From an uncultured Candidatus Saccharibacteria bacterium (lineage in GTDB: Bacteria; Patescibacteriota; Minisyncoccia; Phycocordibacterales; CAYGLL01): a stretch of 51,688 bases of DNA. The position numbers were made by a program, and so were the translations under genes. The DNA is taken from positions 1 through 51,688 of the forward strand of contig CAYGLL010000007.1 in NCBI GenBank assembly GCA_964350935.1. Direction: 5' to 3'. Shown in pieces: positions 2,576 through 29,773 of the stretch (the first letter of the stretch is position 1; the number at the start of each line of letters is the position of its first letter). The notes beneath the pieces are model-generated. The model had not been told where the DNA came from and did not search any database. It saw nothing but the letters and a program-made list of their open reading frames with translations.

Positions 2576-2648
2576 GGCTTAGCAACATAACTCGATTCAT
2601 CACAAAATTGTAACATTCCCCATCTTCATATATAACCCCCTTGGGTAT

Positions 2649-2713
2649 ATATGCTCCTCGGCTCGGACACAAACATAAAGACATGCTTGTGTCTCTCGCT
2701 CTACGTCGCATAT
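2649..2713 (-). repeat. structured intergenic element, copy E (65 nt, inverted orientation)
   Basis: Reverse complement reads ATATGC GACGTAGAGCGAGA GACACAA..TTGTGTC CGAGCCGAGGA GCATAT. Confidence 0.85.
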
Positions 2714-2721
2714 AAAAAACC

Positions 2722-2780
2722 CGGGAAGGACCGCTGAAGGGAAACAGCTTACAAATGCAAGCTTCCAGCGGTCCTTCCCG
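2722..2780 (-). other. perfect 15-bp stem with 29-nt loop, followed on the minus strand by GGTTTTTT and then element E
   Basis: CGGGAAGGACCGCTG ... CAGCGGTCCTTCCCG. Confidence 0.75.
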
Positions 2781-2819: not shown

Positions 2820-3713
2820 ATGGATTGTCTCGTGTCAACTCGACGAACTAATAAATACGTGGATCAACGAATTCGTCTCGCATTAACGCTTTTTGCAGTT
2901 ATTACTTATGCGCTCCCTGCTTTTGCTCAAGAAGAACGCGTTCACATTAAAAATGTTTCTCCTATAAAAACAGGTGACGCAATCGTAATCGAACTTGCCC
3001 TTTCGCCGCAAAATATTGAAAGTATTTTCTTTAATCGTAAATCTATGAACACATTTACTTACAAGGGAAAAACGATGCTGGTACTTCCCATACCAGGACG
3101 AGAATCTGCAGGACTACGAAAACTTGAGATTACCACCACAAACAAGGAAAAGATTACAGAAAACATAACGGTTAATTCCCGATCTTCGCAGGTCATAATA
3201 CTGCCAGTACCAAAAGCGATGAACGTAACCCCGCAAAAATTAGTCGAGAACCTGGGAACACAAAAAGTATCTATCGCCACAAATTTAAATCGAGGCTCAA
3301 ATGCGATTCTTGTTTCAAAACCATTTGGGTTACCTCTTGCTGACAACCGCTCGGTTAGCAGCCCTTACGGTGAGATTCGAAAAACCGGCAACGAATCCAT
3401 TCGCCACATTGGCGTCGATTTTGGCGGAAAAACAGGTTCAATCGTTTACGCTATTAATGACGGAAAAATTCTCGACGCATATACAGATCCTGTATATGGC
3501 AAGACAATCATTATTGATCACGGAGCTCGTATTTCGTCACTCTATATGCACCTCAACAGCATGTTCGTCGTCAAAGGTGCTACGGTAAAACAGGGAAACA
3601 AAATCGGAACGTTGGGTCAAACAGGGCTTGCAAGCGCTCCTCATCTCCACCTTTCAATCAAAATTGACGGCGAGTCTGTTGATCCACTTTCTTTTGTTCG
3701 TAATTTTAAATAG
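2820..3713 (+). CDS. M23/LytM-family metallopeptidase, secreted
   Basis: Signal peptide ending ALPAFA/QEE. C-terminal M23 motifs HIGVDF and SAPHLHLSIKIDGESVDP. Start moved to in-frame ATG 2820 (track start is TTG 2802). Confidence 0.85.
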   Translation: MDCLVSTRRTNKYVDQRIRLALTLFAVITYALPAFAQEERVHIKNVSPIKTGDAIVIELALSPQNIESIFFNRKSMNTFTYKGKTMLVLPIPGRESAGLRKLEITTTNKEKITENITVNSRSSQVIILPVPKAMNVTPQKLVENLGTQKVSIATNLNRGSNAILVSKPFGLPLADNRSVSSPYGEIRKTGNESIRHIGVDFGGKTGSIVYAINDGKILDAYTDPVYGKTIIIDHGARISSLYMHLNSMFVVKGATVKQGNKIGTLGQTGLASAPHLHLSIKIDGESVDPLSFVRNFK

Positions 3714-4686: not shown

Positions 4687-4699
4687 AAGGATTCCTTTT

Positions 4700-5581
4700 T
4701 TACTTCTCAGCAAGCCAGTACCACGCATGACGCCATCGGCTAAAATACTTTAGAGACATATCAACGGTAAAACCGATGAGTGTAATCCAGAGTACGTACG
4801 GAATGATGACGTCCATTGCCATGTATCGTCGAACCAGAAAAATGCGGTATCCCAGACCTTCGGTTGAGGCGAGTCCCTCCGCAGCGATGAGAAACAGCCA
4901 CGAGGCTCCGAGGGAAAGACGAATCGCATCAATCAACCGCGGTTTAACCTGCGGGAGAATGATTCGATACACATAACCAAGTTGAGATGCGCCCATGGTG
5001 AGAGATTTTGTCAGCTGCTCTCGAGGAAGCTCGAGCACCGACTTTCGGATTGAGTGTGTGATGACCGGTGCAACACCAATAACTATTAGTGTTACTTTTG
5101 CCAGCTCACCGAGCCCGAAAACAACAAAGAGAATCGGTAAAAGCGCCAAAGGTGGCACAATCGCAGCGAAGGTGGCAACGGAATACAAACCCGCATCCAT
5201 GCCACGGAAGAGTCCCATATTCATTCCCAGGAAGAGACCGATCAGTGCGGCAATTGAAATTCCAAATGCCATACGTCTCACACTTGCGAAGGTATCGGCC
5301 CATAGGAGCCGTTTCCCTGTTCGAACATCCTCAGTGAATGCCATGCGTTTTATTGCCGCACCCATCTGAGTAAATGTGGGAAGAAGTTTGTCGTTGGGAT
5401 TTTCGCGATGTCGAGCCTGCGAAAGCAGACTGTAGACGATCACGAGCGCTACAAAAGGCAGAAGAGAAAGGAACCGTCCAAACTTTTTTCCCGGAACCGC
5501 ATGGACCCCCCAAAAACTGGGTATCCGATAGTCACGATCTAACCGTTCGACCTCAGAAGTAGGTGTTTCAGTATCTTTCAT
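4700..5581 (-). CDS. ABC transporter permease (SsuC/TauC/NrtB-like)
   Basis: Multi-TM protein directly upstream of the ATPase. Start at ATG 5581, downstream of promoter 5634-5661; the track extension to 5695 runs through promoter and terminator. Confidence 0.8.
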   Translation of the reverse strand: MKDTETPTSEVERLDRDYRIPSFWGVHAVPGKKFGRFLSLLPFVALVIVYSLLSQARHRENPNDKLLPTFTQMGAAIKRMAFTEDVRTGKRLLWADTFASVRRMAFGISIAALIGLFLGMNMGLFRGMDAGLYSVATFAAIVPPLALLPILFVVFGLGELAKVTLIVIGVAPVITHSIRKSVLELPREQLTKSLTMGASQLGYVYRIILPQVKPRLIDAIRLSLGASWLFLIAAEGLASTEGLGYRIFLVRRYMAMDVIIPYVLWITLIGFTVDMSLKYFSRWRHAWYWLAEK

Positions 5582-5633
5582 AGGGTGTTTCAGTAAAGTC
5601 CTGTCAAAGGACACGTTGGTGAATCTAAAAATG

Positions 5634-5661
5634 ATATTACATAAATTGGTATATTTGTCAA
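5634..5661 (-). promoter_or_regulatory. sigma-70-like promoter for permease plus ATPase genes
   Basis: Minus sense TTGACA AATATACCAATTTATG TAATAT (N16). Confidence 0.6.
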
Positions 5662-5672
5662 TACCAAGCTCG

Positions 5673-5707
5673 AAAACAAAAAACGCCCCAGTCATTACGA
5701 CTGGGGC
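5673..5707 (-). terminator. intrinsic terminator after the binding-protein gene
   Basis: GCCCCAGTC/GACTGGGGC stem followed on the minus strand by GTTTTTTGTTTT. Confidence 0.75.
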
Positions 5708-5722
5708 GCGCTCAGGGACAAT

Positions 5723-6808
5723 TTACTTGCCCCGCGAGACTTTTTCCATGTAGGAAGATTTGAACCTGAGTTTGACGTTCGCTTTCGAACCGATCACCGA
5801 GCCGTCCGGGAACTCGATCCCGATGGCATCTTTCGATTTCACGCCGTCACCGAGGAGGCCGTGATCGAAACTAAAGGTCCGAACATGTTCCATGGTCTTT
5901 TTGAGCTTCGGGCTCTTCACGAGCGCCGCAGCTTCAGCCGGATCATAGAACATGCGGGTAGTCTTCAGTTGTGACTTGAACTCTCCGAGCGTTCCGCCGG
6001 CAAACGCGGCCATGAACGCAATCATCTCTTCGGCTTTTGCGTCACCGCCTGACATGATCTTCATCGCCTCATACCACGAGTCGGTCAGGGCCTTTTTGAC
6101 ACCATCGGGCGCGCTCGTCTTCACCACCATGAGATCGATGATCTCTTCAGGGATGTTCGTCGAGCTATACACCTGGAGGGTGTTTGGTTCCTGCTTCACC
6201 TTGAGAAGCATGGGGTTATACGTAACCACGGCAGCCTTGGGTCCTCCACCTGCAAATGCGGCGGTAATGTCGGTATCGGTTGTGTTGAGGAGCGTTACAT
6301 CACGCTCGCGCAACTTCGTTTCCGATTCAAGACCACGAACCAGAAGGTAATGTGAGACGCCGCCAACACCGAGAAAGACCTTGCGACCTTTGATATCAGC
6401 GAGCGTCGTCCCATTCTTCAGTGCGACACCGTCGTTGCCGTTCGAGTAATCCCCAGCAATGAGGACTGTTGAGTCCACACCGCCGGCGCAAGGAATGTTC
6501 AGCGCGTCAATTTGGGTCATGGCGCAGCCGGCAATATCCTTGCCAACGGTGTACTGGTTGATCGACTCAATGTAGTCGTTGACGAGCTCGATCTTGATCT
6601 TCACGTTGTTTTTGGCAGCGTGCCGATCCATGATCCCCTGAGCACGAATGTATTCCCAGATCTCCCAGCCGGTGTAGTGCGACCAGAGCACCCGCCACGT
6701 AGTCGCGGAAGATGCGTCGGCAGCCCGAATCTGCTGAGTCGGAATCGCGAGGAAGGCGATGAGTGCGATGAGGAAGAGTGCTGTCAGTTTCAGTCTGTTC
6801 TGTTTCAT
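5723..6808 (-). CDS. ABC transporter substrate-binding protein (NMT1/SsuA/TauA-like)
   Basis: Signal peptide MKQNRLKLTALFLIALIAFLAIP from ATG 6808; periplasmic binding-protein-like body; own terminator at 5673-5707. Confidence 0.7.
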   Translation of the reverse strand: MKQNRLKLTALFLIALIAFLAIPTQQIRAADASSATTWRVLWSHYTGWEIWEYIRAQGIMDRHAAKNNVKIKIELVNDYIESINQYTVGKDIAGCAMTQIDALNIPCAGGVDSTVLIAGDYSNGNDGVALKNGTTLADIKGRKVFLGVGGVSHYLLVRGLESETKLRERDVTLLNTTDTDITAAFAGGGPKAAVVTYNPMLLKVKQEPNTLQVYSSTNIPEEIIDLMVVKTSAPDGVKKALTDSWYEAMKIMSGGDAKAEEMIAFMAAFAGGTLGEFKSQLKTTRMFYDPAEAAALVKSPKLKKTMEHVRTFSFDHGLLGDGVKSKDAIGIEFPDGSVIGSKANVKLRFKSSYMEKVSRGK

Positions 6809-6853
6809 TTCGTTTGTTTCTTTCTGTTCTGTGTTTTTGGTGATTGTTGTTTC

Positions 6854-6886
6854 GGGGCGGGTGTGACCAAAGGTCACACCCGCCCC
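6854..6886 (-). other. GC-rich perfect 15-bp hairpin between telA and the binding-protein gene
   Basis: GGGGCGGGTGTGACC aaa GGTCACACCCGCCCC; no U-tract follows on the minus strand. Confidence 0.8.
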
Positions 6887-6896
6887 CTCTGCCTTT

Positions 6897-8228
6897 TCAG
6901 GCCTTTGCTTCAGCAACGTCGAGATAATCCAATTTCAGAACCATCGGACGAGCACGCTCGCCCTTCTCGATTCGTTGAATGACTCTTTCAGTGCTTTCGG
7001 TAAGGTCGTGTACCTCACGGATACTCTGAGCCATTACTGGCAGAGCTTCCGTACGGAATTTTGAAAGGTCATTCAATGCACCTTCCAACTTGCCGAAGAC
7101 ATACTTCAAGGTCTCCATGTTAATGCGACGACCGACAGCGAGCTTGTGAATCTCAACACCCTGACCGGCGAGTGTATCGGCGGTATACCGCATGAGACTA
7201 TCGGTAGTGGCATCGAGCGCTGCGAGCTTGTCGAGGACAATCCTCTGACGAGTAAGCACCGTAGCGAGAACCACTGCAATAGTGAGTGCCGACCGAGTGA
7301 TGAGCTGTGCCCGCTCGATCCCGCGAATGACCTGCTTGTGGTTCTGACCCGCAATGTAGTAGGCCATGATACCCTGTTGATTGACTGCAAGCTGATCCTG
7401 CATATCCTGAATTCGCTGACGGCAGGGAAAGAGAAGCTCCTCCAGAATGAACTGGCGCTCTTCAGCTCCCTCAGCCATTCCGTTCGCCTCTGACTCAAGC
7501 AGTTCATCAACTGCCTGCGCAACCGCGATTGCTCGTGCGAGCGATCTCGTGGTTTCACGCATACTGGCTCGGTCTGTCGCCAAGGTCTCAATATCTCGAA
7601 GCATTTCCTTCTTGTCGTTTTCAAGCGAGTTGAAGATAGAATCGATAATCGAACCCTGACTTTGGTACTTGGTGAAGAACTTGTTGAGTGTTGTGCGAGC
7701 CTTACCGGGAAGAAACGGAACCCACGTAAAGAAGCGGCCAACTGAGCCGGGTTCCAGAATGCTGTACCCTGCGGGATTAATCTCATCGATCCTAACCTTA
7801 AGATTGACAATCGATGTACCGACGGCCTCACCAATGGGCGACTGCATCATCCGTGCCGCTGTCTGATCCAAGAGCTTGCTCTTGTGAGCTGACCTCTTTT
7901 GAAGGTCAAGGCCGATACCCTCAACTGCTGCTGAGCGTGCGGCGCGATCTTGTTCGGTCGCTGAACCGAGGTTGTCGAGAAGGTTCTTGACGATACCTTG
8001 GGCGGTTTTCTTAACTCGCGGATCTACCGCAGCCTGTTTTACCAGGTCTTTGGAATCAACGGCGCCAATTTCCCTCTTCAGAGACTCATCACCAGCTTTC
8101 AGTGCCTCAGTAACCGTTTCCGGTGAAGCGAAAGCTGTGCGTTTAGTAACTTCATCAGTGAGTCCGATCTGAGTAAGGACTGCTTTGTCCGGCTCAGCCT
8201 GTCTTACCATTGTTGCTTGTTCTTGCAT
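6897..8228 (-). CDS. telA: TelA/KlaA/YaaN-family toxic anion resistance-like protein
   Basis: 443 aa, all-helical. Core LNKFFTKYQSQGSIIDSIFNSLENDKKEMLRD matches my recollection of the TelA family signature. Sits next to an XpaC-like gene, as yaaN-xpaC does in Bacillus. Confidence 0.65.
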   Translation of the reverse strand: MQEQATMVRQAEPDKAVLTQIGLTDEVTKRTAFASPETVTEALKAGDESLKREIGAVDSKDLVKQAAVDPRVKKTAQGIVKNLLDNLGSATEQDRAARSAAVEGIGLDLQKRSAHKSKLLDQTAARMMQSPIGEAVGTSIVNLKVRIDEINPAGYSILEPGSVGRFFTWVPFLPGKARTTLNKFFTKYQSQGSIIDSIFNSLENDKKEMLRDIETLATDRASMRETTRSLARAIAVAQAVDELLESEANGMAEGAEERQFILEELLFPCRQRIQDMQDQLAVNQQGIMAYYIAGQNHKQVIRGIERAQLITRSALTIAVVLATVLTRQRIVLDKLAALDATTDSLMRYTADTLAGQGVEIHKLAVGRRINMETLKYVFGKLEGALNDLSKFRTEALPVMAQSIREVHDLTESTERVIQRIEKGERARPMVLKLDYLDVAEAKA

Positions 8229-8262
8229 CGTGTTATTTCCTTTCTGTTTTGGAAGTTTCGTT

Positions 8263-9126
8263 TTATTTTTCCTTCAGCATATCTGCGATTCCATCCGAAA
8301 CCGCGCTAAAGGTTCTTTTTCGGTTGGTGAGTTCAAGGAGCATTTCCATTGCCATCTGCATTTCTGACGATCCGTCGTCATCAATATGACACACTGCCAT
8401 AGCAGCCTTATCAAGGGCGGAGAGAGCTTCCTCGTTTTCAGCGATAAGCAAACTGACCTCATCCCTTGTCTGCGTAAACACTTTGAGACTTTCACGCTTT
8501 GCATTGAGTTCCCTGTCCTGAGCGACTGTCCGCTTTGGAAAATTTTCAAGCTCTGTGACTTCGCCCGCTAAGGTTTCAGTCTCTGTGCTTTCAATTCCCA
8601 GTAGAAGTGTGACGATTTGCTCAAGATTTTTTATGCCATTCTTGTAGAGCTCTTCAGCTGCTCCAAGAAAGCGACTGTGAGTGAGTTCACCTTTTCTCAG
8701 CTTTCGCTCGATTACTTCCTGAATATTTCCAAACTTTTCATCGAGGAGTGCGAGCTGGCGAGCGCCTTTTGAGCACCTCACCCGCTTGGTCAACTCTTTC
8801 TGCAACGTGTCGAGATATGCCTTTCGGATTTCATCGAACTCGGCATGAAGTCTCTGGTGATACCGGAGCCGGTAGTCATCTCCTTTTCCCAAAAGCTGGT
8901 AGAGGAAGTTAAACCCGCCGACGCTAATCACCACTCCGGCAACAATAGTTCCAATGACTGGTAGTGCGAGCGCCAGCGATGCCAAGAGCCCTACAACTCC
9001 AACACCCATCGGAATCAACGTACCGGGGTGCTGAATTATTTCACCCAAAACGACTCTGCGAGTAGCACCTTCACCGTAACTTTCAGGTGTAGGCGCCTGT
9101 GCTTGTCTTTCGGTTTTTTTGTTCAT
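8263..9126 (-). CDS. XpaC-like membrane protein (two TM helices plus helical cytoplasmic domain)
   Basis: Architecture (two adjacent TM helices, then a long helical region) and adjacency to telA. Start at ATG 9126 behind AGGAAT; track start is TTG 9150. Confidence 0.4.
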   Translation of the reverse strand: MNKKTERQAQAPTPESYGEGATRRVVLGEIIQHPGTLIPMGVGVVGLLASLALALPVIGTIVAGVVISVGGFNFLYQLLGKGDDYRLRYHQRLHAEFDEIRKAYLDTLQKELTKRVRCSKGARQLALLDEKFGNIQEVIERKLRKGELTHSRFLGAAEELYKNGIKNLEQIVTLLLGIESTETETLAGEVTELENFPKRTVAQDRELNAKRESLKVFTQTRDEVSLLIAENEEALSALDKAAMAVCHIDDDGSSEMQMAMEMLLELTNRKRTFSAVSDGIADMLKEK

Positions 9127-9265
9127 TATTATTCCTACATGGATTTTCAAAAAACAATGTGCAGCTAGTGCACCTTTGACTTATTCTGCACATTATTGCA
9201 ATTTTGTCAAGTATACGTTCTGCCTTTCTGTGGCCTACTTGAGGCCTCATTTACCACTCCTTTAG

Positions 9266-9300
9266 CAAAGAAAAAGGCCTCTCGCATTCACGAGAGGCCT
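9266..9300 (-). terminator. intrinsic terminator after 9309-10886
   Basis: AGGCCTCTCG/CGAGAGGCCT stem followed by TTTTTCTTTG on the minus strand. Confidence 0.75.
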
Positions 9301-9308
9301 TAAAAAAC

Positions 9309-10886
9309 TCAATACACTTCAGTGAGAAGAGTGATCTCCACCCGCCTGAGCCGAAAACCATACGCTCGGTCCGGCTCGTCCGGAAGACGTGGGAGCGGCC
9401 GTGAACCGCCATGCCCGACTGCGTACATTCGGTTGGGATCAACCGAATACGTCGCCTCGAAATACTTAGCGACAGCATCAGCCCGTTCCTTAGAAAGGAT
9501 TTTGCTCGTCTCCTCGTCACCACCAATGTCCGTGTGGCCGCTAACTCCGATTCGAAATGTCGGATAGTGCTTGATCTTTGCAGCGATTCTGTCGAGCTCC
9601 TCTTTTCCTTCAAGTGTAAGCTCTCCTGTTCCGCTCTTGAAGTTGATCGGTTCGATTTTCATCGTTCCAATCGGCTTCTGCATACGCCAAGCAGTTTCAG
9701 AGAGCACGGAGAACCGTGCTTCAATTCCCTGCCCCGTACCTAAAGCGGCAGGAGCAAGATTGGTGAAGCCGAATCTCACTCCAGACTTGTAGAGGTTTTT
9801 GATGAAGTCACTGTTGATGATGTGATACGGATTCTTTTTGGGAATCGGATGCGTAGAAAAGTCTTTCGCATCTATGAGAATCTCAACTGTCGATTCAATC
9901 GTATCAACAAGCCCCTGTTCGCCGGTCTGCCCTTGCGAAGAGATCCCAAACCAACTCTCAGCGTTTTCGGTAAGTGTGACCCACCGAACGCCTTGAATTG
10001 ATTTTTCCGCAACAACAGTCTTGACGTGCATTTCACTCGCAAACTCATTCCGCAAGTCGTCGCTGTTCGAGTTGTAGTATTTCAACACCCGAAAATATGC
10101 CTTCAGGAGGATATCGAGAGTCTCGGGATGTTCCTGAATGATCTTCCGATTGGCGATAGCGACATCAACAACGACACGTTTCGTTTGCTCGGTACCCAGT
10201 AGTTTTTCAACTCCCGGAATTTCGAGCGCTTTTGAAACGTCAGGCTCCCACAACACGGCGATCGATACCTTGCGGTTCTTAAGGAGATCAAGTGCCCCTT
10301 CAGAACCTTCGGTTTCAAGTCGCATTTTTGACGGAAGCGTACGAAGCACCGGAATATCGAAATGAGCGCCGGCAACCTTCAGCAAGTGATGACTCGCGGA
10401 ATTGGGGGTGAATGCAATTTTCTGAATCTTGTTGGTTTTTAAAGCCTCAAGATTCGGAAAAGCGTCTTTGTAGGCGCAAATAGCATCGCCCTTTGACTCA
10501 TCAATGACTGCGATGATCGCACCCGGATACTGAGCTTTAACTGCATTCAGAATATAGGTGTCGACCGTTGCTACGATGAGATCAAACTCGCCTTTCTCAA
10601 GGCGATCCATGCGACTTTTGTAGTCAGCCTTGTCGTCTTCGCAGACGAGAAGGTAACCCTCCCGAAGCATCTCTTTCTTGAGCCGTTGTGAACGCAACGG
10701 GAAATAGCCTGCCCACGAATCAACGCCGATGGTAATGCGACCCTTCGTCGCACGAGCATCGCTCGTTTCAATATCTGCCTTATTCTTGTTACGAGCCTTG
10801 AGGATTGGGGCCCCAAACTTGTAAACGAAGACGCCGATAATACCGACCACCACCGCAATGATGGTTATCAATGTTAGCTTTTTCAT
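9309..10886 (-). CDS. membrane-anchored binding-protein-like (NMT1/TauA-type) :: OmpA_C-like fusion protein
   Basis: N-terminal TM anchor; RITIGVDSWAGYFP... binding-protein body; C-terminal OmpA-like GHTDIGGDEETSKILSKERADAVAKYF...RLRRVEI. Confidence 0.7.
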   Translation of the reverse strand: MKKLTLITIIAVVVGIIGVFVYKFGAPILKARNKNKADIETSDARATKGRITIGVDSWAGYFPLRSQRLKKEMLREGYLLVCEDDKADYKSRMDRLEKGEFDLIVATVDTYILNAVKAQYPGAIIAVIDESKGDAICAYKDAFPNLEALKTNKIQKIAFTPNSASHHLLKVAGAHFDIPVLRTLPSKMRLETEGSEGALDLLKNRKVSIAVLWEPDVSKALEIPGVEKLLGTEQTKRVVVDVAIANRKIIQEHPETLDILLKAYFRVLKYYNSNSDDLRNEFASEMHVKTVVAEKSIQGVRWVTLTENAESWFGISSQGQTGEQGLVDTIESTVEILIDAKDFSTHPIPKKNPYHIINSDFIKNLYKSGVRFGFTNLAPAALGTGQGIEARFSVLSETAWRMQKPIGTMKIEPINFKSGTGELTLEGKEELDRIAAKIKHYPTFRIGVSGHTDIGGDEETSKILSKERADAVAKYFEATYSVDPNRMYAVGHGGSRPLPRLPDEPDRAYGFRLRRVEITLLTEVY

Positions 10887-10911
10887 AGTTGGTAAAGAAC
10901 ACTAACAGCTT

Positions 10912-10939
10912 AGATTACATAAAAAAAGCTTTTTGTCAA
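10912..10939 (-). promoter_or_regulatory. sigma-70-like promoter for 9309-10886
   Basis: Minus sense TTGACA AAAAGCTTTTTTTATG TAATCT (N16). Confidence 0.6.
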
Positions 10940-10962
10940 TATACCGTTCGGACAATTAAACT

Positions 10963-10995
10963 AAAGAAAAAGCGCCCCAAAAGCTTGGGGCGCTT
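10963..10995 (-). terminator. intrinsic terminator after the small ORF of the ATPase operon
   Basis: GCGCCCCAA/TTGGGGCGC stem followed by TTTTTCTTT on the minus strand. Confidence 0.75.
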
Positions 10996-11013
10996 ACTAA
11001 ACTCAGGCAGACA

Positions 11014-11193
11014 CTAACTTTCCTCCTTGTGCTTTTTGTCTTTACCCGCTCCCTTGAGCGCTTCTCCGAGCCGCTTCATCAACGGTTCAATGTCAGGCGC
11101 CTTTTCAGAGCGACGCTTAATTGGTGGCGGAGTAGTTTCCTCAGGACTAAGAGGTGGGGTTGTCTCGCGTTCGGTTCGTTGCTTACGTTTCAT
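11014..11193 (-). CDS. small Lys/Glu/Pro-rich, probably disordered protein (59 aa)
   Basis: ATG 11193 preceded by GAGGTG, which overlaps the ATPase stop codon (GCAGCATAAGAGGTGTTTATG). Followed by terminator 10963-10995. Confidence 0.45.
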   Translation of the reverse strand: MKRKQRTERETTPPLSPEETTPPPIKRRSEKAPDIEPLMKRLGEALKGAGKDKKHKEES

Positions 11194-11202
11194 AAACACC
11201 TC

Positions 11203-12912
11203 TTATGCTGCCGGTTGAACCGTGCTCGCCTTCAGGCATTTCGTAAGAGTCTTTTTGGACTCCTCAACAAGAATTTGGAAGTCGTCGTCGTAGTTTCCGT
11301 CACGTGACTCAACAAATGCACTGTCTGCCGCTGAAACGATGTCATCGAAGGTAATTCCCTCGGGAGTTCCGAGATTTTCAACATTGCGCCTGATTGCTAT
11401 CTCAGTCGCCCGCTCGACAATGTTTGCGATCATTGCTCCACTCAGAACATCGCCAAACGTAAACGGACGATCTTCCTTTTGACCGGCGTTATCAGTGAGC
11501 TCAAGGTCGAAAATCACACGCTTCGGACTGAAGACTTCAGTTGCAGCCTGTGCCGCAAGCCCTGCGAGTTCCAAACCTTCCCGCAGAAGCGTCTTCTTGA
11601 GATGAATCGCGAAGATCTGCCCGGCACCCTTTTGATTCCTCGGACGATCAACTTTCACTTTTCGATCGATACGTCCAGGACGGATAATTGCAGGATCCAA
11701 AACATCGGGACGATTCGTTGCGAGAATGATGAGCGCCGAGGATTCCTCGAGCCCATCCATCTCAGCAAGAAACGTCGGGACAATGGTCTTTTCAACGTCC
11801 GAACTGATACCGCTACCGCGCTTTGAAAGCAGAGCTTCCGCCTCATCGATGAAGATGGTCAGCGGGTAGCCATACTTTTTCTTGAACGCACGAGCAAGAT
11901 CGAAGATCTGTCGGATGACACCTTCAGGTTCGCCGACCCACTTGGTCAACATTTCGGGTCCCTTGATGCAGAGAAATCCGCCCGAAACATCTTTACTCGA
12001 CAAGAGTCGAGCACGTGCTGCTGCTGCACCTTTGGCGAGAAGTGTTTTACCGCAACCGGGAGGTCCGTAAATGAGAATTCCTTTGAGTGGCTTCCGCTTG
12101 TATTTTTTGTACAAGTCAGCGTGCACAATGGGAAACTCGATCGCCTGAATCATGACAGAGACGGCTGCATCCTGCCCACCGATATCCGCCCAGGTAAATT
12201 CGAGTTTTTCACTGAACTCAAACCGAGACTCGTCCTTGCCAATGTTGAGAAGAATGATACTTCCCGACTTATCGAGTACGACACGATCGCCGGCTTCAGG
12301 TGACTGCGTACGTCCCAATAAAACGACGCGGGCATTTCCCTGAAACTCAACCTCAACACGTCCGTTATCGAGAATCCGTTTGATCGTAGCGACCCCGCCC
12401 CAGAGTGAGTCCTCGATGACGTCCACAATCTGAAATGTCTTCATCGAGAGTCGCACTGTGTCTCCGGCCTTAAGACTCTTATCCACAGGAAGTTTCACCT
12501 CAAGCTCTCTGCCTTCATAGGCAACAACAACCGAGATACCCCGATCGAAGAGTTCAAGATCGCACTCACCAAGCACAAGCAGAGGGTCATCGTTTCGGGT
12601 TTCACCGATTCGATACTCGCCTTCAGCTCCGCTGTCAAAATGGACCGTAACCCACCCAGGACGTAGAGAATTCTTAATTGTACCGAGACCCATTTTACTG
12701 CTCTCAAGCTCTGCGCCCGGCCGAACAAAAACTCGAACACTCGGTGCAAAATCCTTTGGAGTCGGATTAAGGAGAACACCCTTGCCAATTCGCAGAACAG
12801 TACCAAGAGCAAACGGCTCGCCGGTAAGCTGGAGTATGCGGGCATGCTGTTTGAGAACCGTATCTCGCGACCTCTCAATTACGTCGCGTAACTGCGCATC
12901 ATGTTCAGTCAT
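11203..12912 (-). CDS. ARC/Mpa/PAN-type AAA+ ATPase (coiled coil + OB-like N-domain + single AAA module)
   Basis: Walker A GPPGCGKT and Walker B IFIDEAE. RGSGISSDVEKTIVPTFLAEMDG and NRPDVLDPAIIRPGRIDRKVKVDRP closely resemble the proteasomal-ATPase family as I recall it. The N-terminus has a short helix followed by ~220 aa of beta-rich sequence. Confidence 0.8.
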   Translation of the reverse strand: MTEHDAQLRDVIERSRDTVLKQHARILQLTGEPFALGTVLRIGKGVLLNPTPKDFAPSVRVFVRPGAELESSKMGLGTIKNSLRPGWVTVHFDSGAEGEYRIGETRNDDPLLVLGECDLELFDRGISVVVAYEGRELEVKLPVDKSLKAGDTVRLSMKTFQIVDVIEDSLWGGVATIKRILDNGRVEVEFQGNARVVLLGRTQSPEAGDRVVLDKSGSIILLNIGKDESRFEFSEKLEFTWADIGGQDAAVSVMIQAIEFPIVHADLYKKYKRKPLKGILIYGPPGCGKTLLAKGAAAARARLLSSKDVSGGFLCIKGPEMLTKWVGEPEGVIRQIFDLARAFKKKYGYPLTIFIDEAEALLSKRGSGISSDVEKTIVPTFLAEMDGLEESSALIILATNRPDVLDPAIIRPGRIDRKVKVDRPRNQKGAGQIFAIHLKKTLLREGLELAGLAAQAATEVFSPKRVIFDLELTDNAGQKEDRPFTFGDVLSGAMIANIVERATEIAIRRNVENLGTPEGITFDDIVSAADSAFVESRDGNYDDDFQILVEESKKTLTKCLKASTVQPAA

Positions 12913-12993
12913 AATATATCTGCCTTTGTTTTGTTAAAGACCCAGGTTTTTTTCGTCGATATGCACCAGGCACATCTTCTGAAAACTAAAGGC

Positions 12994-13021
12994 AAACTAG
13001 CATAAAATTATAAAAAGTCAA
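12994..13021 (-). promoter_or_regulatory. sigma-70-like promoter for the AAA+ ATPase operon
   Basis: Minus sense TTGACT TTTTATAATTTTATGC TAGTTT (N16). Confidence 0.5.
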
Positions 13022-13042
13022 TAGTCCTTACGCCTTCTCACT

Positions 13043-13077
13043 AAAAAGAAAAACCCTCCCCGCTTTTGCGAGGAGGG
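13043..13077 (-). terminator. intrinsic terminator after the vWA gene
   Basis: CCCTCC..GGAGGG stem followed by TTTTTCTTTTT on the minus strand. Confidence 0.7.
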
Positions 13078-13096
13078 TGAAGTGACACGGAACAAC

Positions 13097-13831
13097 TTAC
13101 TTCTGCGGCTTAAAGGAGTCTGACTCGGCAAGAACCGATTCGAGGCCCTTCTTGAGATCTCCGGGAGAGTTTGCATCCCGGTAGTTGATCTTCCCTGGCT
13201 GGTTCAACGAGTGGCCGCCACCGATGCAGAAACCCATCGTGTGAATCACCACGGGTGTCCCCGTGAGGATTTCTTTGACGATCTCACTCGGGTCCTGACC
13301 CATGTTGGCTTCGCCGTCGGTGACAACCACCAGGTGGTACTCACCATAGCCCAGTTGTCGGGCAGCCTGTCGTTTCACCTTCTCGTACGCGAGTGTGATT
13401 GAGTCCTTGAGCGGAGTGTTAGCTCGGGTGTCGGAGACATCGACCGCGCGGTTGAACTCTTTCCGGTTGTTTACGTTAAGAGGTACCCGCTCAGTAATGC
13501 CGTCACCATCGAAGACCAGAAGCCCGAGGTTGTCTTCAGGGTTAAGTCTTGAAGCGAACTCTTTGACGGCCCGCTTCGCAACTGCCGACTTGGACTCGCT
13601 GCCTGAGCAACCGCTGCTCGCCATACTCCCGGAACCGTCGAGAACGATGTAGAAATTTCGCCTCGTCTGTTCCGGATCAAGATCGGTGCTGTCGGTGCCA
13701 TACCACGCCTGCACTCCAAGAGTGCTCGTGCCGGCACTACTGCTCCCCGATCCCGTCGCATCTGCCGAATCTTTGCAGCCTGTAGAGAGGAGTAACCCAA
13801 GAATGAGTGTTGGAAACAGATATCTCATCAT
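13097..13831 (-). CDS. von Willebrand factor A (vWA) domain lipoprotein
   Basis: Lipobox LLLSTGC; MIDAS start FYIVLDGSGSM. Tandem ATGs at 13831/13828 lie right after AGGAGG and the upstream stop codon; the track start 13987 overlaps the upstream gene. Confidence 0.75.
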   Translation of the reverse strand: MMRYLFPTLILGLLLSTGCKDSADATGSGSSSAGTSTLGVQAWYGTDSTDLDPEQTRRNFYIVLDGSGSMASSGCSGSESKSAVAKRAVKEFASRLNPEDNLGLLVFDGDGITERVPLNVNNRKEFNRAVDVSDTRANTPLKDSITLAYEKVKRQAARQLGYGEYHLVVVTDGEANMGQDPSEIVKEILTGTPVVIHTMGFCIGGGHSLNQPGKINYRDANSPGDLKKGLESVLAESDSFKPQK

Positions 13832-13838
13832 GGCCTCC

Positions 13839-15533
13839 TTACTTGGCGGGAGTGAACACCGAGGCTTCGGCCTCGACGGGAACCAAACGGAATACAGCGC
13901 GCATGTTTGAGAGGAATTTCTCCTCGCTGTCAGGCCGCACCGGAATACCGTTCTGCATTCCTGTCTTCGGATTTGAGAACCCGACACCGCTCACGCCGAA
14001 CTGAGACGAATCAAGCGTATGCTTTTTTACGTTTGAAGCGTAATCAAGAACCGCCTGCCGAACGGCTGCGGCTCGTGAGAGAGAAAGGTTCCTTCCGCTC
14101 TGCGCAATCCGTTTGAGCACCGCATCAGGTGCATTGGTCTTTGCCGCATCAACATAGCCTGTTGGGTCGCTATGACCTTCGATACTGATGATCGCTCCGG
14201 CGTACGTAGTCGCAAGCTCAATCACCCGTTCGAAGTCCTCCTTGTAGGCTTCCGCGTCGAACGTTTGTTTGTTCGGCGGGAACTTCACCTCAAAGGTGAC
14301 CACGGCCGCTGCACCGAGCGTGCCGGCAGCGGTTTTCTTCGCGACAAACTGTGCAACCGCTTCCGGCTGGAAACGTGGAGCTTCCGCCATTGAGGTGTTG
14401 AAGAGACCTTGTTTCAGATCATCGTAATTGAGAACGCCATGCTCAAGGAGAACCGTTGACTTCAGGATGTTGAGTTTCATAAAGGCCTGCTGGATCTCAC
14501 TGTTGAGAGCCAGGAAGCCGCGCGGAAACGTCGGATCATTGAAGAACTTCACATTGCCGGGATAGCCGACAAACGTGCAGTCTGCATAGAGTCCTTTCAC
14601 GTCTTCAGTCATGTCCTTGGTGTCGAGAAGCATCAGTGCACTCGCAGGAAGCAGACGATCGAGCTCGGGCTTGCGGGCGGGGTCTTTCATGATTCGTGCG
14701 ACCTGTTCCTCTGCGAGGAGCAGGGCGTGCACAAACTTTTCAACCTCACCGCGATGAGACTCGAAGTACTCCTGACTACACACATAGACGTCGGGAATTG
14801 CCTGATTTGCAGTCAACGTGGAGAAGAGCGAACGAGCGCCCCGCACCGCCTTGTCACCGCTTACCAGTTCCTTGGCATCAGGCGAAATCACAAACGCCGC
14901 GTGGACATTTGGATCTTGCCTGAATGCTGCTCCCGGCGTGTTGTCGGTACCAGTAATGTCTTTGACGTATTTGATCGTAACATCCGTCGGAGAAAGATTT
15001 CCCCGCTTAAGAATCGTCGTGAGAAGATCGAGATGCGGGCCGTAAGCCTGAATCACGATTGTTTTCCCCCGAAGGTCCTCGATGCTGTTGATCCCGCTTT
15101 TAACGACGAGCACATCGCCACCCGATGACCATGTCATCTGGTAGACCGTGACCGGCCGCGTCCGCGGATCCTGATTGAGAAGTTCGGCTGCTTGATTCAA
15201 CATGCCGAGCGTAACCCGCAAGTAAGGACTCTGGCCGCCCATGTATCCCACCAGCTGATTGGTGAACACGTCCTGACGAACGAGCCTGAAGTTCAAGCCC
15301 TGCTTCGCAAAGATCGAGTTGGGCGCCGTGTTAGTGGCACTCCCGTTCCCGAAGATGGTGGCGATATCACCGCCCCACGTGATGATCGGGAGTTGATCCG
15401 CCGGACCGTTCCTGGTATAGGAGCGGACGGGGGTCTTCACGACATCACGAAGCGGCTTCTGTTCGATGTATTGAGCAGCATTAAGCGCGAGCGCCTGAAT
15501 GCAGAGGATAACTAACCACAGGTGTCTTTTCAC
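13839..15533 (-). CDS. secreted binding-protein-like :: OmpA_C-like fusion protein (paralogous architecture to 9309-10886)
   Basis: GTG start behind AGAAAGG; signal peptide; binding-protein-like body; C-terminal IEGHSDPTG...LSLSRAAAVRQAVLDY...MRAVFRLV is OmpA-like. Confidence 0.7.
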   Translation of the reverse strand: MKRHLWLVILCIQALALNAAQYIEQKPLRDVVKTPVRSYTRNGPADQLPIITWGGDIATIFGNGSATNTAPNSIFAKQGLNFRLVRQDVFTNQLVGYMGGQSPYLRVTLGMLNQAAELLNQDPRTRPVTVYQMTWSSGGDVLVVKSGINSIEDLRGKTIVIQAYGPHLDLLTTILKRGNLSPTDVTIKYVKDITGTDNTPGAAFRQDPNVHAAFVISPDAKELVSGDKAVRGARSLFSTLTANQAIPDVYVCSQEYFESHRGEVEKFVHALLLAEEQVARIMKDPARKPELDRLLPASALMLLDTKDMTEDVKGLYADCTFVGYPGNVKFFNDPTFPRGFLALNSEIQQAFMKLNILKSTVLLEHGVLNYDDLKQGLFNTSMAEAPRFQPEAVAQFVAKKTAAGTLGAAAVVTFEVKFPPNKQTFDAEAYKEDFERVIELATTYAGAIISIEGHSDPTGYVDAAKTNAPDAVLKRIAQSGRNLSLSRAAAVRQAVLDYASNVKKHTLDSSQFGVSGVGFSNPKTGMQNGIPVRPDSEEKFLSNMRAVFRLVPVEAEASVFTPAK

Positions 15534-26504: not shown

Positions 26505-26526
26505 CTATCCATCATAACAAACAAGA

Positions 26527-26549
26527 CCCCGGTTACTATCCGGGGTTTT
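26527..26549. terminator. terminator-like hairpin between rpoD and the kinase gene, directly 5' of element A on the plus strand
   Basis: CCCCGG ttactat CCGGGG followed by TTTT (plus) or TCTTGTTTG (minus). Confidence 0.5.
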
Positions 26550-26553
26550 GTTG

Positions 26554-26618
26554 ATTAGCGACGTAGAGTGAGAGAAATGAAGAATTCTTATTTTTCATTT
26601 CCGAACCGAGAAGCTAAT
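26554..26618 (+). repeat. structured intergenic element, copy A (65 nt)
   Basis: ATTAGC GACGTAGAGTGAGA GAAATGAA..TTCATTTC CGAACCGAGAA GCTAAT, 23 nt from the rpoD stop. Confidence 0.85.
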
Positions 26619-26641
26619 ATAAGGCTTAAATACCGCTTTTA

Positions 26642-27829
26642 TTAGTAGCTCTTAAGTTTTGATATTTTTTCGTGCTGGCGAATTTTTTCGTGGGCTTTTG
26701 CTTCGATCTGGCGGATACGCTCACGGGTAACGCCGAATTTCTGGCCAACCTCTTCGAGTGTGTGTGTAATACCGTCCATAAGCCCATGACGCATCTCAAG
26801 AATCCTCTGCTCTTTATCTGAAAGATCTTCAAGAATTTCACGCACCTGATCACGCAAAATACGACGTGATGCTTCCTGGTCTGGAGACAGAATCTTATCA
26901 TCAAAAAGAAAATCTCCGAGGGTTGATCGTCCATCATCACTATCATCGCCAACCGGACTCTCGAGTGATACGGTGTCCTGATCAATCTTTTCGATTTGGT
27001 AAATTTTATCGGTATCAACTCCCATTTCAATTCCAATTTCCTCCGGTAACGGGTCACGTCCCAAATCCTGCGACAGACGTCGTACTACTTGTTTATATTT
27101 AGCAATGGTCTCAACCATGTGAACCGGAACACGAATGGTGCGCGACTGATCAGCGAGAGCACGCGTGATAGCCTGGCGAATCCACCAGGTTGCGTAGGTT
27201 GAAAACTTGTAACCTTTTTTCCAGTCAAACTTATCAACCGCCTTAAAGAGACCGAGGTTTCCTTCCTGAATAAGATCGAGAAGTGTTAAATCAGGACTGC
27301 GCCCAACGTATTTTTTTGCAATCGAAACAACGAGACGTAGGTTTGCGCGAGCAAGCAAATTTTTTGCTTCGTCGTCACCTTTTTCAATCCGCTTTGCAAG
27401 TTCTTTTTCCTCAGCTGCATTGATGAGGGGGTACTGTCCAATCTCTTTCAAATACATTTGGATAGAATCGTACGAGGAATCGCTCTTTGAGTAACCATAC
27501 TGCTTTGTCTGTTTTTCTTCCTGCTGGATTTCAAGCATTCCCCCTCCCTCAAGAACGTCAATACCGGCCACGCTAAACTTTTCATACAACGTATCGAGGA
27601 ACGAAATATCATTTTCAATAGTCGGAAATTCTCGCAAAATTTCATCATACGTCACAAAGCCTCGCTCTTTACCCTTAGCAATCAAACGGTCGGCTTTGCG
27701 ATCAAAATCCTGAGCCTTTTTTGAAGCACTTTTTTGTGGAACAGCAGGCTGCTTTTTAGACACAGCCTTCTCAGGCGTTTTCTTTTTGGCGACTTTTTTA
27801 ACCGATTTTTTTGTATTTTTTTTCTTCAT
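26642..27829 (-). CDS. rpoD: RNA polymerase sigma-70 factor RpoD
   Basis: Lys-rich N-terminus; region 2 YATWWIRQAITRA; region 4.2 TLEEVGQKFGVTRERIRQIEAKA. Confidence 0.9.
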   Translation of the reverse strand: MKKKNTKKSVKKVAKKKTPEKAVSKKQPAVPQKSASKKAQDFDRKADRLIAKGKERGFVTYDEILREFPTIENDISFLDTLYEKFSVAGIDVLEGGGMLEIQQEEKQTKQYGYSKSDSSYDSIQMYLKEIGQYPLINAAEEKELAKRIEKGDDEAKNLLARANLRLVVSIAKKYVGRSPDLTLLDLIQEGNLGLFKAVDKFDWKKGYKFSTYATWWIRQAITRALADQSRTIRVPVHMVETIAKYKQVVRRLSQDLGRDPLPEEIGIEMGVDTDKIYQIEKIDQDTVSLESPVGDDSDDGRSTLGDFLFDDKILSPDQEASRRILRDQVREILEDLSDKEQRILEMRHGLMDGITHTLEEVGQKFGVTRERIRQIEAKAHEKIRQHEKISKLKSY

Positions 27830-27834
27830 AAATT

Positions 27835-27941
27835 ATTAGCGACGTAGAGTGAGCGACCTTGTTTGATTTATCAGACAAGGAGTACCCTTGTGGTATGAAA
27901 TGGGAAATTTTTATTTTTCATTTCCGAACCGAGGAGCTAAT
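27835..27941 (+). repeat. structured intergenic element, copy B (107 nt = copy A layout plus 42-nt two-hairpin insertion)
   Basis: Same ends and loops as copy A; begins 5 nt from the rpoD start codon. Confidence 0.85.
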
Positions 27942-28027
27942 ATAAGAGTTACCTTACCTGAGACTATACCGACCATACGTCATATTCCTGGAATTATACT
28001 GATCTCTATTACTAATAAATACTGCTT

Positions 28028-29773
28028 TTATTTTCGTTCCTTCAGCTGAATTTCGTTGATTTTTTTTGAAACGTCCTGCGACCTCTTCAGGAGTGACATT
28101 GCTTTTAAGTGATCGTGCTCCCGTTCGACCTTGTCTATCTCAATTATCAGTCCTGCAAGTTCTGCTTTAAGGTATTCAAGATGGATATCGTTTAATAGTC
28201 GGCTAATATCCTCAGAAATGACTTGCGATGTATCATAATACGCTTCTGCCTCAAAAATCAATCTTTGCTGAGCCTCCTCCTCAATGTTCTTTAAAAACTG
28301 ACTCCCTCGCGATCCCCCTGAAATCTGGTCCCATTCTTTAAGAACAGTATCCGGGTCTCGCGCCGGCGATTTTGTTGTTTTAAGCCATAAAATGACCCCA
28401 GTCAGGCGTTGCTCGAGAAAATCTTTTCGATCAAACGCAACACGTTCCGATCCTACTTTAACAGCGATTTCTTCGCCTCCCGATGAACCAGCTTTGGCAA
28501 GCACACTGTCACGAGATATATGAGCGAGATCCTTCCATAAGGCGTCGTCTTTAATTCGTGTCATTTTTGATATTTCACTGATGAAATGTGACTGCACGAC
28601 CGAACTTTCAATAAGTGACACCAGGGGCAACACCTCGTGTGTAACACGACGGGCCAAAACCCTGCCGTCGGTCGCTTCTTTTACTGCGCGCTCGGCGAAA
28701 AAAGTAATAACGTGATTTGATTCCTTGATTACTGCCTTAATTACCTCAAGTCCGTGGCGCGCAATATCTGCAGGATCTTGCCCGTCCGGAAAAAGTGCAA
28801 TCTTAACTTCCATGCCTTGCGCGAGGGTAAGTACCGATGCTCGATATGCCGCTTTCAAACCCGCCGCGTCACCATCATACGCAAGAATCATATTAGAAGA
28901 GAGACGGCGCACCAATTCAATCTGTTCGAACGAAAGAGCGGTTCCCGACGTTGCTACGACATTAGTAAGTCCAACCTGATGTGACATAACGAGATCCATC
29001 TGACCCTCAACCAGTATCGAGTAGCCGAATTTTCTCATGCCGTCTTTTGCCTTATCAAAACCGTAGAGTACTTTTGATTTGGTGAAGATCGGCGTCTCGG
29101 GACTATTCAAATATTTCGGTTCGTTTTCTTCCTGGTTTAAAATTCTTCCTGAGAAAGCAACAATGCGACCAGAACTATCGAAGATGGGAAACTGGATGCG
29201 CCCGCGGAAACGATCATACACTGTTTTGCCGTCATCGGATTTTTTTATGAGCCCCGCCTTCTCCATCTCCCCCTGCGTATATCCACGCGAAGAAAGGTGC
29301 GTTCCGAGTGCGCGCCACTCTTTTGGCGCAAACCCCAAACGCCATTTTTCAAATGAAGCCTGATTTAATCCGCGTTTGAGAAGATACTCGCGGGCGGCAG
29401 TTTCCGTTGTTAAGTTTGACTCGAACCATCGCGACGCCTCTTCCATGATTTCGTACAACTTGTCCTTCTCGCTCTTTAAAGTCGGGTTTTCTTTTACAAT
29501 CTCAACACCCGCACGCGCAGCCAGAGTTTTGAGTGCGCCCAGAAAATCAGTTCCCTCAAACTGCTCAACGAAAGTGAACATGTCCCCTTTCATGCCGCAT
29601 CCAAAACAATAGAACGTGCCCCGGTTGGGTGACACGAAAAAGGATGGCGTCTTTTCGTGATGAAAAGGACACCGTGCCTTGTAACTCGAACCGGCTTTCT
29701 CAAGCTTGATTGAACCTCCGATCACGTCAACGATCGAAAGCCGGTCTTTAATTTGTTCTACAGTTGAAGACAT
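28028..29773 (-). CDS. dnaG: DNA primase DnaG
   Basis: CHC2 zinc finger CPFHHEKTPSFFVSPNRGTFYCFGCG; TOPRIM EGQMDL...YDGDAAG. Confidence 0.9.
   Translation of the reverse strand: MSSTVEQIKDRLSIVDVIGGSIKLEKAGSSYKARCPFHHEKTPSFFVSPNRGTFYCFGCGMKGDMFTFVEQFEGTDFLGALKTLAARAGVEIVKENPTLKSEKDKLYEIMEEASRWFESNLTTETAAREYLLKRGLNQASFEKWRLGFAPKEWRALGTHLSSRGYTQGEMEKAGLIKKSDDGKTVYDRFRGRIQFPIFDSSGRIVAFSGRILNQEENEPKYLNSPETPIFTKSKVLYGFDKAKDGMRKFGYSILVEGQMDLVMSHQVGLTNVVATSGTALSFEQIELVRRLSSNMILAYDGDAAGLKAAYRASVLTLAQGMEVKIALFPDGQDPADIARHGLEVIKAVIKESNHVITFFAERAVKEATDGRVLARRVTHEVLPLVSLIESSVVQSHFISEISKMTRIKDDALWKDLAHISRDSVLAKAGSSGGEEIAVKVGSERVAFDRKDFLEQRLTGVILWLKTTKSPARDPDTVLKEWDQISGGSRGSQFLKNIEEEAQQRLIFEAEAYYDTSQVISEDISRLLNDIHLEYLKAELAGLIIEIDKVEREHDHLKAMSLLKRSQDVSKKINEIQLKERK

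Follow-up and report, generated by a model that had tools for sequence, protein, structure and literature searches.

A structured intergenic element with fixed internal loops in Patescibacteria, represented by three copies in a single contig

The short structured repeats described from bacterial intergenic regions include the repetitive extragenic palindromes (REPs) and bacterial interspersed mosaic elements (BIMEs) of Proteobacteria with their REP-associated tyrosine transposases (RAYTs), the palindrome-associated transposable elements (PATEs) derived from IS200/IS605, and the ERIC/IRU, Correia (NEMIS), BOX and RUP families. The Patescibacteria, or Candidate Phyla Radiation (CPR), which make up a large share of bacterial diversity, have tiny, gene-dense genomes that are thought to carry few transposons, and we know of almost no non-coding elements described for them. 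Here we report on a structured element in a 51,688-nt stretch of DNA (the window: positions 1 to 51,688 of contig CAYGLL010000007.1) from an uncultured Candidatus Saccharibacteria bacterium, in which two copies, A and B, lie on either side of the gene for the sigma factor RpoD and a third, C, lies elsewhere. It belongs to a real, strongly structured and apparently undescribed family. Our best reading, to which we give a probability of about 0.5, is that this family is a non-autonomous interspersed element that proliferates in Patescibacteria and is specific to them, and that A, B and C each arose by its insertion.

A complete unit of this element reads, from 5′ to 3′, a (T)TTA lead, a first domain (D1) consisting of an outer stem (P1), a fixed GA-rich internal loop and an inner stem (P2), an abutting second domain (D2) and the end TTTAY. 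A preliminary description of the locus had presented a 65-nt element; its structured hairpin stands, but it makes up just D1, the 5′ domain of the longer unit. As with the REP/BIME and RAYT systems, whose repeats are recognized as folded single strands, we are dealing here with multi-copy, imperfect extragenic palindromes that occur in both orientations, often near 3′ ends or terminators, and contain a GTAG string. However, REPs are palindromes of ~20-40 nt with near-identical copies in each genome, whereas D1 is 65 nt long with an invariant internal loop of 14/11 nt; the stems of the element vary within one genome (compare copies A and C) and its loops are fixed across the superphylum, the opposite of what REPs show; and its GTAG lies inside the loop instead of 5′ of the hairpin. 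The loci examined (designated by L and a number) are 8-kb blocks around matches to the element, not whole genomes, with genes taken from simple open reading frame (ORF) calls; none of the 192 neighbors in them is a RAYT (Y1 transposase) gene flanked by copies. The inverted pairs of copies at L111 and L112, considered as possible flanks of a RAYT-like gene, enclose instead genes for GAPDH, RpiB and secreted proteins.

Like the PATEs, the element has a hairpin near each end (D1 on the left, D2 on the right) and a strand-specific fold, and it forms head-to-tail arrays. It would also resemble them in leaving no evident duplication of its target, in inserting 3′ of a conserved short motif like its own right end (TTTAY) and in a bias toward the presumptive lagging-strand template, this last being weak (60 versus 34) and confounded with gene orientation. 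Unlike in PATEs, no Y1 transposase or TnpB gene with matching ends was found at ~125 D1 copies, and the left-end structure is far more elaborate than the known TnpA-binding hairpins. The element does not have the makeup of a classical miniature inverted-repeat element of the DDE type: its ends are direct (TTTAY at both) without terminal inverted repeats, and a duplication reaching into P1 is only weakly above permutation. The ERIC/IRU, Correia, BOX and RUP repeats are likewise modular structured intergenic repeats of ~100-200 nt; they face either way, differ in presence from one genome to another at orthologous loci and share the transcripts of their neighbors. They are, however, confined to a genus or family and conserved over their whole sequence, whereas here the loops alone are conserved over phylum-level distances; moreover, the direct TTTAY ends contrast with Correia and RUP, which are bounded by terminal inverted repeats and duplicate their targets. 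Finally, class C group II introns have a similar target, immediately behind the hairpin and T-run of an intrinsic terminator, but the element does not exceed ~200 nt and is without the GUGYG 5′ end, domain V/VI and reverse-transcriptase ORF.

Structure of the unit and its copies in the window

Copy A has its D1 at 26554..26618 on the plus strand, scores 80.9 bits (E 7e-26) with the covariance model of the family (R1) and folds with -19.2 kcal/mol (z -4.5). Its P1 pairs 26554-26559 with 26613-26618 (ATTAGC/GCTAAT) and its P2 pairs 26574-26585 with 26590-26601 (12 bp, closed by a TCTT loop); the 5′ internal loop reads GACGTAGAGTGAGA and the 3′ one CGAACCGAGAA. The D1 of copy B (27835..27941, plus strand) is antisense between dnaG and rpoD and has the same ends and loops along with a 42-nt insertion, CGACCTTGTTTGATTTATCAGACAAGGAGTACCCTTGTGGTAT, at 27854-27896, after GAGTGAG and between the 5′ loop and P2. 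These two copies are present just as the preliminary description had them, in their ends, loops and insertion; of the two extra hairpins that it drew within the insertion, the first (CCTTGTTTGA/TCAGACAAGG) appears in the minimum-free-energy fold and the second was not reproduced. A mismatch-tolerant search turned up copy C, which was absent from that first list: its D1 (2649..2713, minus strand; 82.5 bits, E 2e-26 with R1; -26.7 kcal/mol, z -6.0) is laid out as ATATGC / GACGTAGAGCGAGA / GACACAAGCATG-tctt-TATGTTTGTGTC / CGAGCCGAGGA / GCATAT. The P1 and P2 sequences of C differ from those of A and yet pair, the loops are the same, and a pyrimidine-purine pair within the loops covaries, being U-A in A and B and C-G in C. 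By chance, the 19-mer half of the element would be expected 0.03 times and the 23-mer half 0.00 times in the window. The strand bearing GACGTAGAG folds with z -4.5 to -6.0 in these copies, and its complement with z -2.3 to -3.4.

An alignment of 77 distinct copies (A1), modeled as P1, loop and P2 with five intra-loop pairs (23 pairs in all), has a standard pair in 92% of its cells, as against 32-49% when the partners are slid by 1-3 columns. Compensatory changes occur at 18 of the 23 pairs, and the covariation score is 0.48 versus 0.17 for shuffles, with 0 of 500 shuffles attaining the observed value, so that the structured family envisaged from copies A and B alone is borne out in the larger alignment. 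P2 contains 34 G·U/U·G cells versus 7 A·C/C·A cells in these copies; therefore, the GACGTAGAG strand is the one selected to fold, in agreement with the wobble argument made earlier for the plus strand of A and B. Copies found solely by R1, which were not pre-selected by any pattern, keep the loops in most cases. The G16A change at L080 comes together with C60U, and a G·U occupies that pair at L029; these changes support the predicted intra-loop pairing. The copies at L090, L006 and L028 are decayed. A sister variant of D1 at L115:1477-1548 and L117:627-693 has shorter loops (5′ TAGCGAG, 3′ CGAGCGA) with its TTA lead and type of D2 unchanged; this suggests a modular loop, of which the P2-proximal GAG/CGAG would be the shared core.

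Lineages as far apart as Saccharibacteria, Parcubacteria and Shapirobacteria have the same ~25 fixed nucleotides in the loop. We infer from their sequence pattern that the loop could begin, beside P1, with tandem sheared G·A pairs and then stack a C-G pair, the bulged-G or loop-E-like CGUAG/CGAG and a covarying mini-helix of 2-3 bp, in which one A is bulged, before reaching another tandem G·A step at P2. The predicted intra-loop pairs include C9-G57, G13-C54, G15-C53 and Y16-R52 (counting from the start of P1). We take the CGUAG/CGAG between Watson-Crick pairs and the two 5′-GA/5′-GA steps to fit the loop E/sarcin-ricin and tandem sheared G·A modules, and the 5′ loop presumably resembles the loop E of bacterial 5S rRNA (GAUGGUAG); unlike those modules, as assigned by pattern, the element does not stand in a ribosomal context.

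Counted from GACG, the lead has T at -9 (74%), -8 (97%) and -7 (95%) and A at -6 (97%), and the composition is flat upstream of -10, which implies that there is no promoter at a fixed distance. D2 follows the 3′ side of P1 without a spacer: its A-rich opening strand (ATAAAGG, ATATAGG, GAAACC) pairs with CCTTTAT, CCTATAT or GGTTTAC, and the closing stem holds either a small AAUACC loop or one to three GC-rich hairpins after AAUACC (AACGCC in GC-rich lineages), the middle one often with a GAGCGAAGCGAA cap. D2 was described by inspection and from an 11-sequence alignment, in which hairpins 1 and 3 covary, as automatic delimitation by the best stem was too noisy in AT-rich sequence; roughly a third of the D2 with a readable closing stem have CCTTTAT or CCTATAT at the end. 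Among the window copies, the D2 of A (26619..26643, plus strand; ATAAGGCTTAAATACCGCTTTTATT) is minimal, a weak hairpin with an AAUACC loop that ends in TTTAT; it has the same ends as that of B, and its final bases overlap the reverse complement of the rpoD TAA stop. That of B (27942..28032, plus strand) is degenerate, expanded and thermodynamically unstable (z +1.3); it starts with ATAAGAG and ends with AAATACTGCTTTTATT, this end overlapping the reverse complement of the dnaG TAA stop. That of C (2630..2648, minus strand; ATACCCAAGGGGGTTATAT) is again minimal and can extend by pairing with the P1 3′ strand to give the alternative hairpin CATATATACCC/GGGTTATATATG.

The likeness between A and B spans ATTAGC to GCTTTTATT, outside which they are unrelated, with no visible flanking duplication. 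The 5′ lead and 3′ end have TTTAY in common, in direct and not inverted orientation. Head-to-tail tandems with nothing between the units are found at L072 (...GGAACCTTTATT followed directly by AACGACGTAGAG), L069 and L028. A copy-specific extension of the repeat into P1 is seen in A, C and the element at L120; over 107 copies it is weakly above permutation (2.59 versus 2.45, z ~2.5), and given this weakness we make no claim of guide-target pairing or of a target duplication reaching into P1.

Several smaller motifs recur at these loci. The cap GAGCGAAGCG(A/G)A is found as the P2 loop at L012, L033, L045, L065, L088, L090 and L114, and in the second D2 hairpin at L058, L088, L096 and L100; we take the GCGAAGC within it to be the exceptionally stable DNA mini-hairpin sequence, which hints at folding as single-stranded DNA. 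The 42-nt module of copy B is found nearly unchanged at L038, from another Paceibacteria metagenome-assembled genome (MAG), at a different position of the element, just 3′ of the D1 CCGAG and again after GAG. It may represent either a mini-insertion of its own, nested in the element, or a structural module that is optional. Short GC-rich perfect palindromes also recur, CCTGCCTGCCGGCAGGCAGG at L068, L062 and L111 and the CCGCCTCTGGCGG type at L108, L114 and L039; some of them are inserted within the element, between CCGAG and the P1 3′ strand, and look like another small repeat family.

Distribution, genomic setting and turnover

A scan with the pattern GACGTAGAGNGAG-N18-48-CGANCCGAG over one genome per species (185,579 species) yielded at least 119 matches. 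Besides copy C, at least ~110 further copies thus lie, among the matches listed, in Patescibacteria MAGs of many classes, which answers the question of whether A and B were the only ones. They come from Saccharibacteria, Doudna-, Komeili- and Buchananbacteria, Minisyncoccia, one member of Shapirobacteria and many lineages of Parcubacteria/Paceibacteria (Kaiser-, Yonath-, Zambryski-, Nomura-, Lloyd-, Vogel- and Campbellbacteria). About nine of the listed matches are GC-rich sequences in Actinobacteria, Proteobacteria and others and are without P1 and P2, as chance predicts; among viral contigs there was a single match, by chance, within a GC-rich gene. As the preliminary description had surmised, the element belongs to no family in Rfam 15: nothing reached the gathering level in the whole window, and permissive scans of the copy A region and of eight loci with full units gave no match on the element. 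Our searches of the literature on CPR non-coding RNAs and repeats, and for the motif strings, found nothing relevant.

Several known classes were also compared. The commonest P1, ATTAGC/GCTAAT, does not correspond to the R″/R′ core sites of integron attC (RYYYAAC / GTTRRRY), and there are no cassette arrays. TIGR-Tas arrays were rejected, as their stems are conserved and their loops variable, the reverse of the pattern of the element. Likenesses to T-boxes, Y RNAs, the signal recognition particle RNA, attC, group II introns and bridge RNAs were considered and dropped since the defining features are missing.

The genomic setting of the copies is mixed. With respect to the flanking genes, 34 are sense, 27 antisense, 18 between convergent and 16 between divergent genes; the 192 neighboring proteins fall into 179 clusters, with RpoD as the sole recurrent family, and more than 95% of the members adjoin unrelated genes. 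This is not the arrangement of a leader or riboswitch, for sense and antisense copies occur in comparable numbers and the downstream genes are mixed (S19, S12, S6, IF1, GreA, MurC, GAPDH, UppS and others). Directly in front of roughly a quarter of the copies is a terminator-like hairpin, the T-run of which passes into the TTTA lead; other copies overlap a stop codon or follow a promoter. The element does not have the makeup of an intrinsic terminator either: D1 is followed by D2 and not by a U-tract, separate canonical terminators adjoin, and there are antisense and divergent copies. Its folding strand lies on the locally G-rich strand, presumably the lagging-strand template, in 60 cases versus 34 (94 cases, p ~0.01), with GC skew strongly correlated with gene direction at these loci.

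In the window, copies A and B stand on either side of rpoD (sigma-70; 26642..27829, minus strand, stop 26642-26644, ATG 27827-27829), upstream of which lies dnaG (primase; 28028..29773, minus strand); copy B fills the 198-nt spacer between them. The placements given in the preliminary description are accurate: A lies 23 nt from the rpoD stop with a hairpin and T-run in front of it, and B lies 5 nt from the rpoD ATG, where no Shine-Dalgarno sequence is visible. The hairpin before A (26520..26552) is bidirectional and terminator-like (plus strand -21.6 kcal/mol, z -6.1; minus strand -16.9 kcal/mol). It is most simply the terminator of rpoD, with copy A inserted between it and the rpoD stop; in the closest relative (L120), a canonical terminator likewise comes after the element.

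What is not supported is a reading of the two flanking copies as functionally tied to rpoD. The organism of the window is one of the Paceibacteria. In the three closest relatives (RpoD 94%, 88% and 85% identical), the dnaG-rpoD spacer is 3, 15 and 2 nt, compared with 198 nt here; therefore, copy B is a lineage-specific insertion. At L120 (11166-11262), an element with another P2 directly follows rpoD in the sense orientation, its P1 supplying the TAG stop of rpoD, whereas copy A is antisense at the same site. The rpoD regions of L121, L122 and three more relatives are without a full copy, and a single fragment is all that turned up in 80 metagenomic rpoD loci (404 kb), leaving one full copy in all across the six relatives and the 80 loci. 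Thus, three copies per 52 kb of the window compare with one or two per ~525 kb of these 86 related rpoD loci; the distribution is patchy even among close relatives. Conversely, single genomes may harbor several identical or near-identical copies, such as the four 100%-identical D1 on four contigs of the MAG JAYUPL01 (L003, L005, L036 and L107) and the four near-identical 160-nt units in CAYIHW01 (L023 twice, L039 and L101). Two independent assemblies of the species in the window, otherwise identical to it, end inside copy B (start of L124) and inside copy A (end of L125); hence, the repeat fragments CPR assemblies.

Mobility and the alternatives to it

The independence from context, the polymorphism in both presence and orientation, the identical copies within genomes, the tandems and the patchiness are much more in keeping with a non-autonomous repeat that proliferates than with an essential RNA or a regulator of one particular gene. 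Moreover, a fold selected on one strand, with fixed loops and freely varying stems, implies recognition in a single-stranded form. We accordingly infer that the element spreads by active transposition through a single-stranded intermediate with a protein reading its loops. Under such a scheme, the selected feature would be the fold of the GACGTAGAG strand, as single-stranded DNA or RNA, and a protein acting in trans to copy or move the element would dock on the invariant loop nucleotides. Insertion would take place in short AT-rich spacers (3′ of T-runs, at stop codons, or between a stop codon and a terminator) in either orientation and without an obvious target-site duplication. As to the route, the absence of inverted termini and target duplication, the right end resembling a T-rich target, the tandems and the weak strand bias together recall single-stranded DNA elements of the IS200/IS605 type; a comparable "peel and paste" mechanism is therefore the one that we would tentatively prefer, by analogy and with more doubt than conviction. 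An RNA-mediated route is less likely still, and we give it little weight.

Several observations tell against a proliferating element. No transposase, recombinase or reverse transcriptase recurs within ~4 kb of the ~125 copies, and no autonomous form with an ORF between D1 and D2 is seen among them. No pair of filled and empty sites from the same species was found, so the boundaries and the lack of a target duplication rest on paralogous copies. The GC-skew bias is modest and correlated with gene orientation, and copies A and B of the window lie on the C-rich strand. The loops are invariant over distant lineages to a degree that is unusual for a selfish repeat, their invariance within A1 itself being in part forced by the exact pattern that seeded the alignment, and the tandem G·A and bulged-G motifs are typical of functional RNAs. 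Finally, rpoD flanks recur more than expected among the loci selected for the element: besides the window and L120, an antisense tandem mirroring copy B occupies the dnaG-rpoD gap at L072 (1478-1650), from a Doudnabacteria MAG, and L057 (~1880-1980) has a sense copy just after rpoD. These flanks are a possible insertion hot spot, and we attribute the recurrence to what, judging from the local sequence, would be a target preference: the Lys-rich 5′ end of rpoD faces T-runs on the other strand, and the C-terminal ...AGT TAT TAG of this gene is like TTATTAG. The position by rpoD is without regulatory meaning, rpoD being a bystander gene and the link incidental.

If the element is indeed mobile, it points to a conserved mobilizing activity in organisms thought to be poor in transposons, and it would both serve as a marker for genome dynamics and account for recurrent assembly breaks in CPR MAGs. 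Whether it is mobile or an RNA with a cellular role, R1 can be used for annotation and should keep these elements from being taken for regulators of single genes.

Loop motifs that resemble those of RNAs, and conservation across phyla, leave room for other readings, namely a trans-acting RNA, a REP-like host function or a retroelement bearing a ribozyme. Foremost among these, albeit unlikely, is that the copies are multi-copy genes for a small structured non-coding RNA, with D1 as its body and D2 plus UUUAUU as a terminator-like end, acting in trans, for instance as a scaffold or sponge for a CPR protein. The strong covariation, strand specificity and RNA-type loops would be natural in such genes, as would a D2 that looks like a hairpin followed by a U-rich tract and an orientation independent of the neighbors, as expected of free-standing genes. 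Nevertheless, there is no conserved promoter at any fixed distance, nor room for one in copies that stand right after the T-run of a terminator, on a stop codon (L120) or, like B, within an operon 5 nt from a start codon; the tandem units are joined without a spacer; and the near-absence of full copies from the 86 related rpoD loci, against three in the window, makes the element dispensable and patchy. In the event that D1 is an RNA with a cellular role, it would represent a new class of structured RNA restricted to the CPR.

Somewhat less credible is a cis-acting element in mRNA or DNA akin to REP or ERIC, spread by recombination and retained by the host as useful, be it as a 3′-end stabilizer, an operon insulator or punctuation, or a site for a nucleoid or RNA-processing protein. 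All three copies in the window do lie within transcription units (3′ untranslated region, intercistronic spacer and 5′ untranslated region, respectively), and elements are generally placed tightly between genes and beside terminators, with loops conserved in the long term. However, sense and antisense copies are about equally common although selection on the fold concerns one strand alone, 16 copies occupy promoter regions between divergent genes, a setting in which REPs are rare, and the element is patchy among close relatives; the persistence of canonical terminators beside it implies that it is not itself the terminator. An equally improbable view is that D1 is an ancient, CPR-specific functional RNA module, which would be either a new class of self-cleaving ribozyme or a docking site for a conserved ribonucleoprotein, driving an RNA-mediated spread like that of short interspersed elements (SINEs), or alternatively a multi-copy non-coding RNA acting in trans.

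We regard as more doubtful yet the specific proposal of an RNA-mediated retroelement, wherein D1 would be a new self-cleaving ribozyme, or a module recruiting a reverse transcriptase, that frees or marks the RNA of the element. Fixed internal-loop nucleotides, ~25 in number, between covarying stems in scattered, orientation-independent and sometimes tandem copies form a pattern that is also seen for the hammerhead, twister, hatchet and hepatitis delta virus-like ribozymes, and the conserved sequence begins abruptly at UUUA, 5′ of P1. But none of the Rfam ribozyme models matches, the fold is a single hairpin with no evident pseudoknot or junction, neither target-site duplications nor series of 5′-truncated copies are seen, and no reverse transcriptase lies nearby. 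As for a cis- or antisense regulator of rpoD, the two copies flanking rpoD here, the antisense unit in the dnaG-rpoD gap of L072 and the sense units after rpoD at L057 and L120 might bring one to mind, but it is highly improbable given a full copy at 0 of 80 unbiased metagenomic rpoD loci and 1 of 6 relatives, the differing orientation at L120 and the location of more than 95% of the members by unrelated genes.

Other features of the window

Copy C lies in a divergent intergenic region, upstream of a gene for a PMT-family glycosyltransferase (1235-2575, minus strand), with a peptidase M23 gene (2802-3713, plus strand) on its other side. Immediately 5′ of it is a long GC-rich hairpin followed by TTTTTT (2714..2779, minus strand), which is not the terminator of a gene, because no gene ends in this divergent region. 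It may be a solo D2, the remnant of an upstream unit since lost; alternatively, with a promoter-like TTGACA-N17-TAGTAT upstream of it, it may be a structure of the attenuator type.

Scans of all 51.7 kb of the window for tRNA and tmRNA genes, and for Rfam families at the gathering threshold, were negative. A block of ~12 kb (~3787-15533) has a G+C content of 0.48-0.53, compared with ~0.43-0.45 in the adjacent sequence and 0.47-0.48 in the far half of the window. It codes for an ABC transporter (an NMT1-like binding protein, a permease and an ATPase), TelA, an OmpA-domain protein, an AAA ATPase and a VWA protein. This block is probably an acquired island, which separates the bPH_2 and peptidase M23 genes that are neighbors in the relative at L120.

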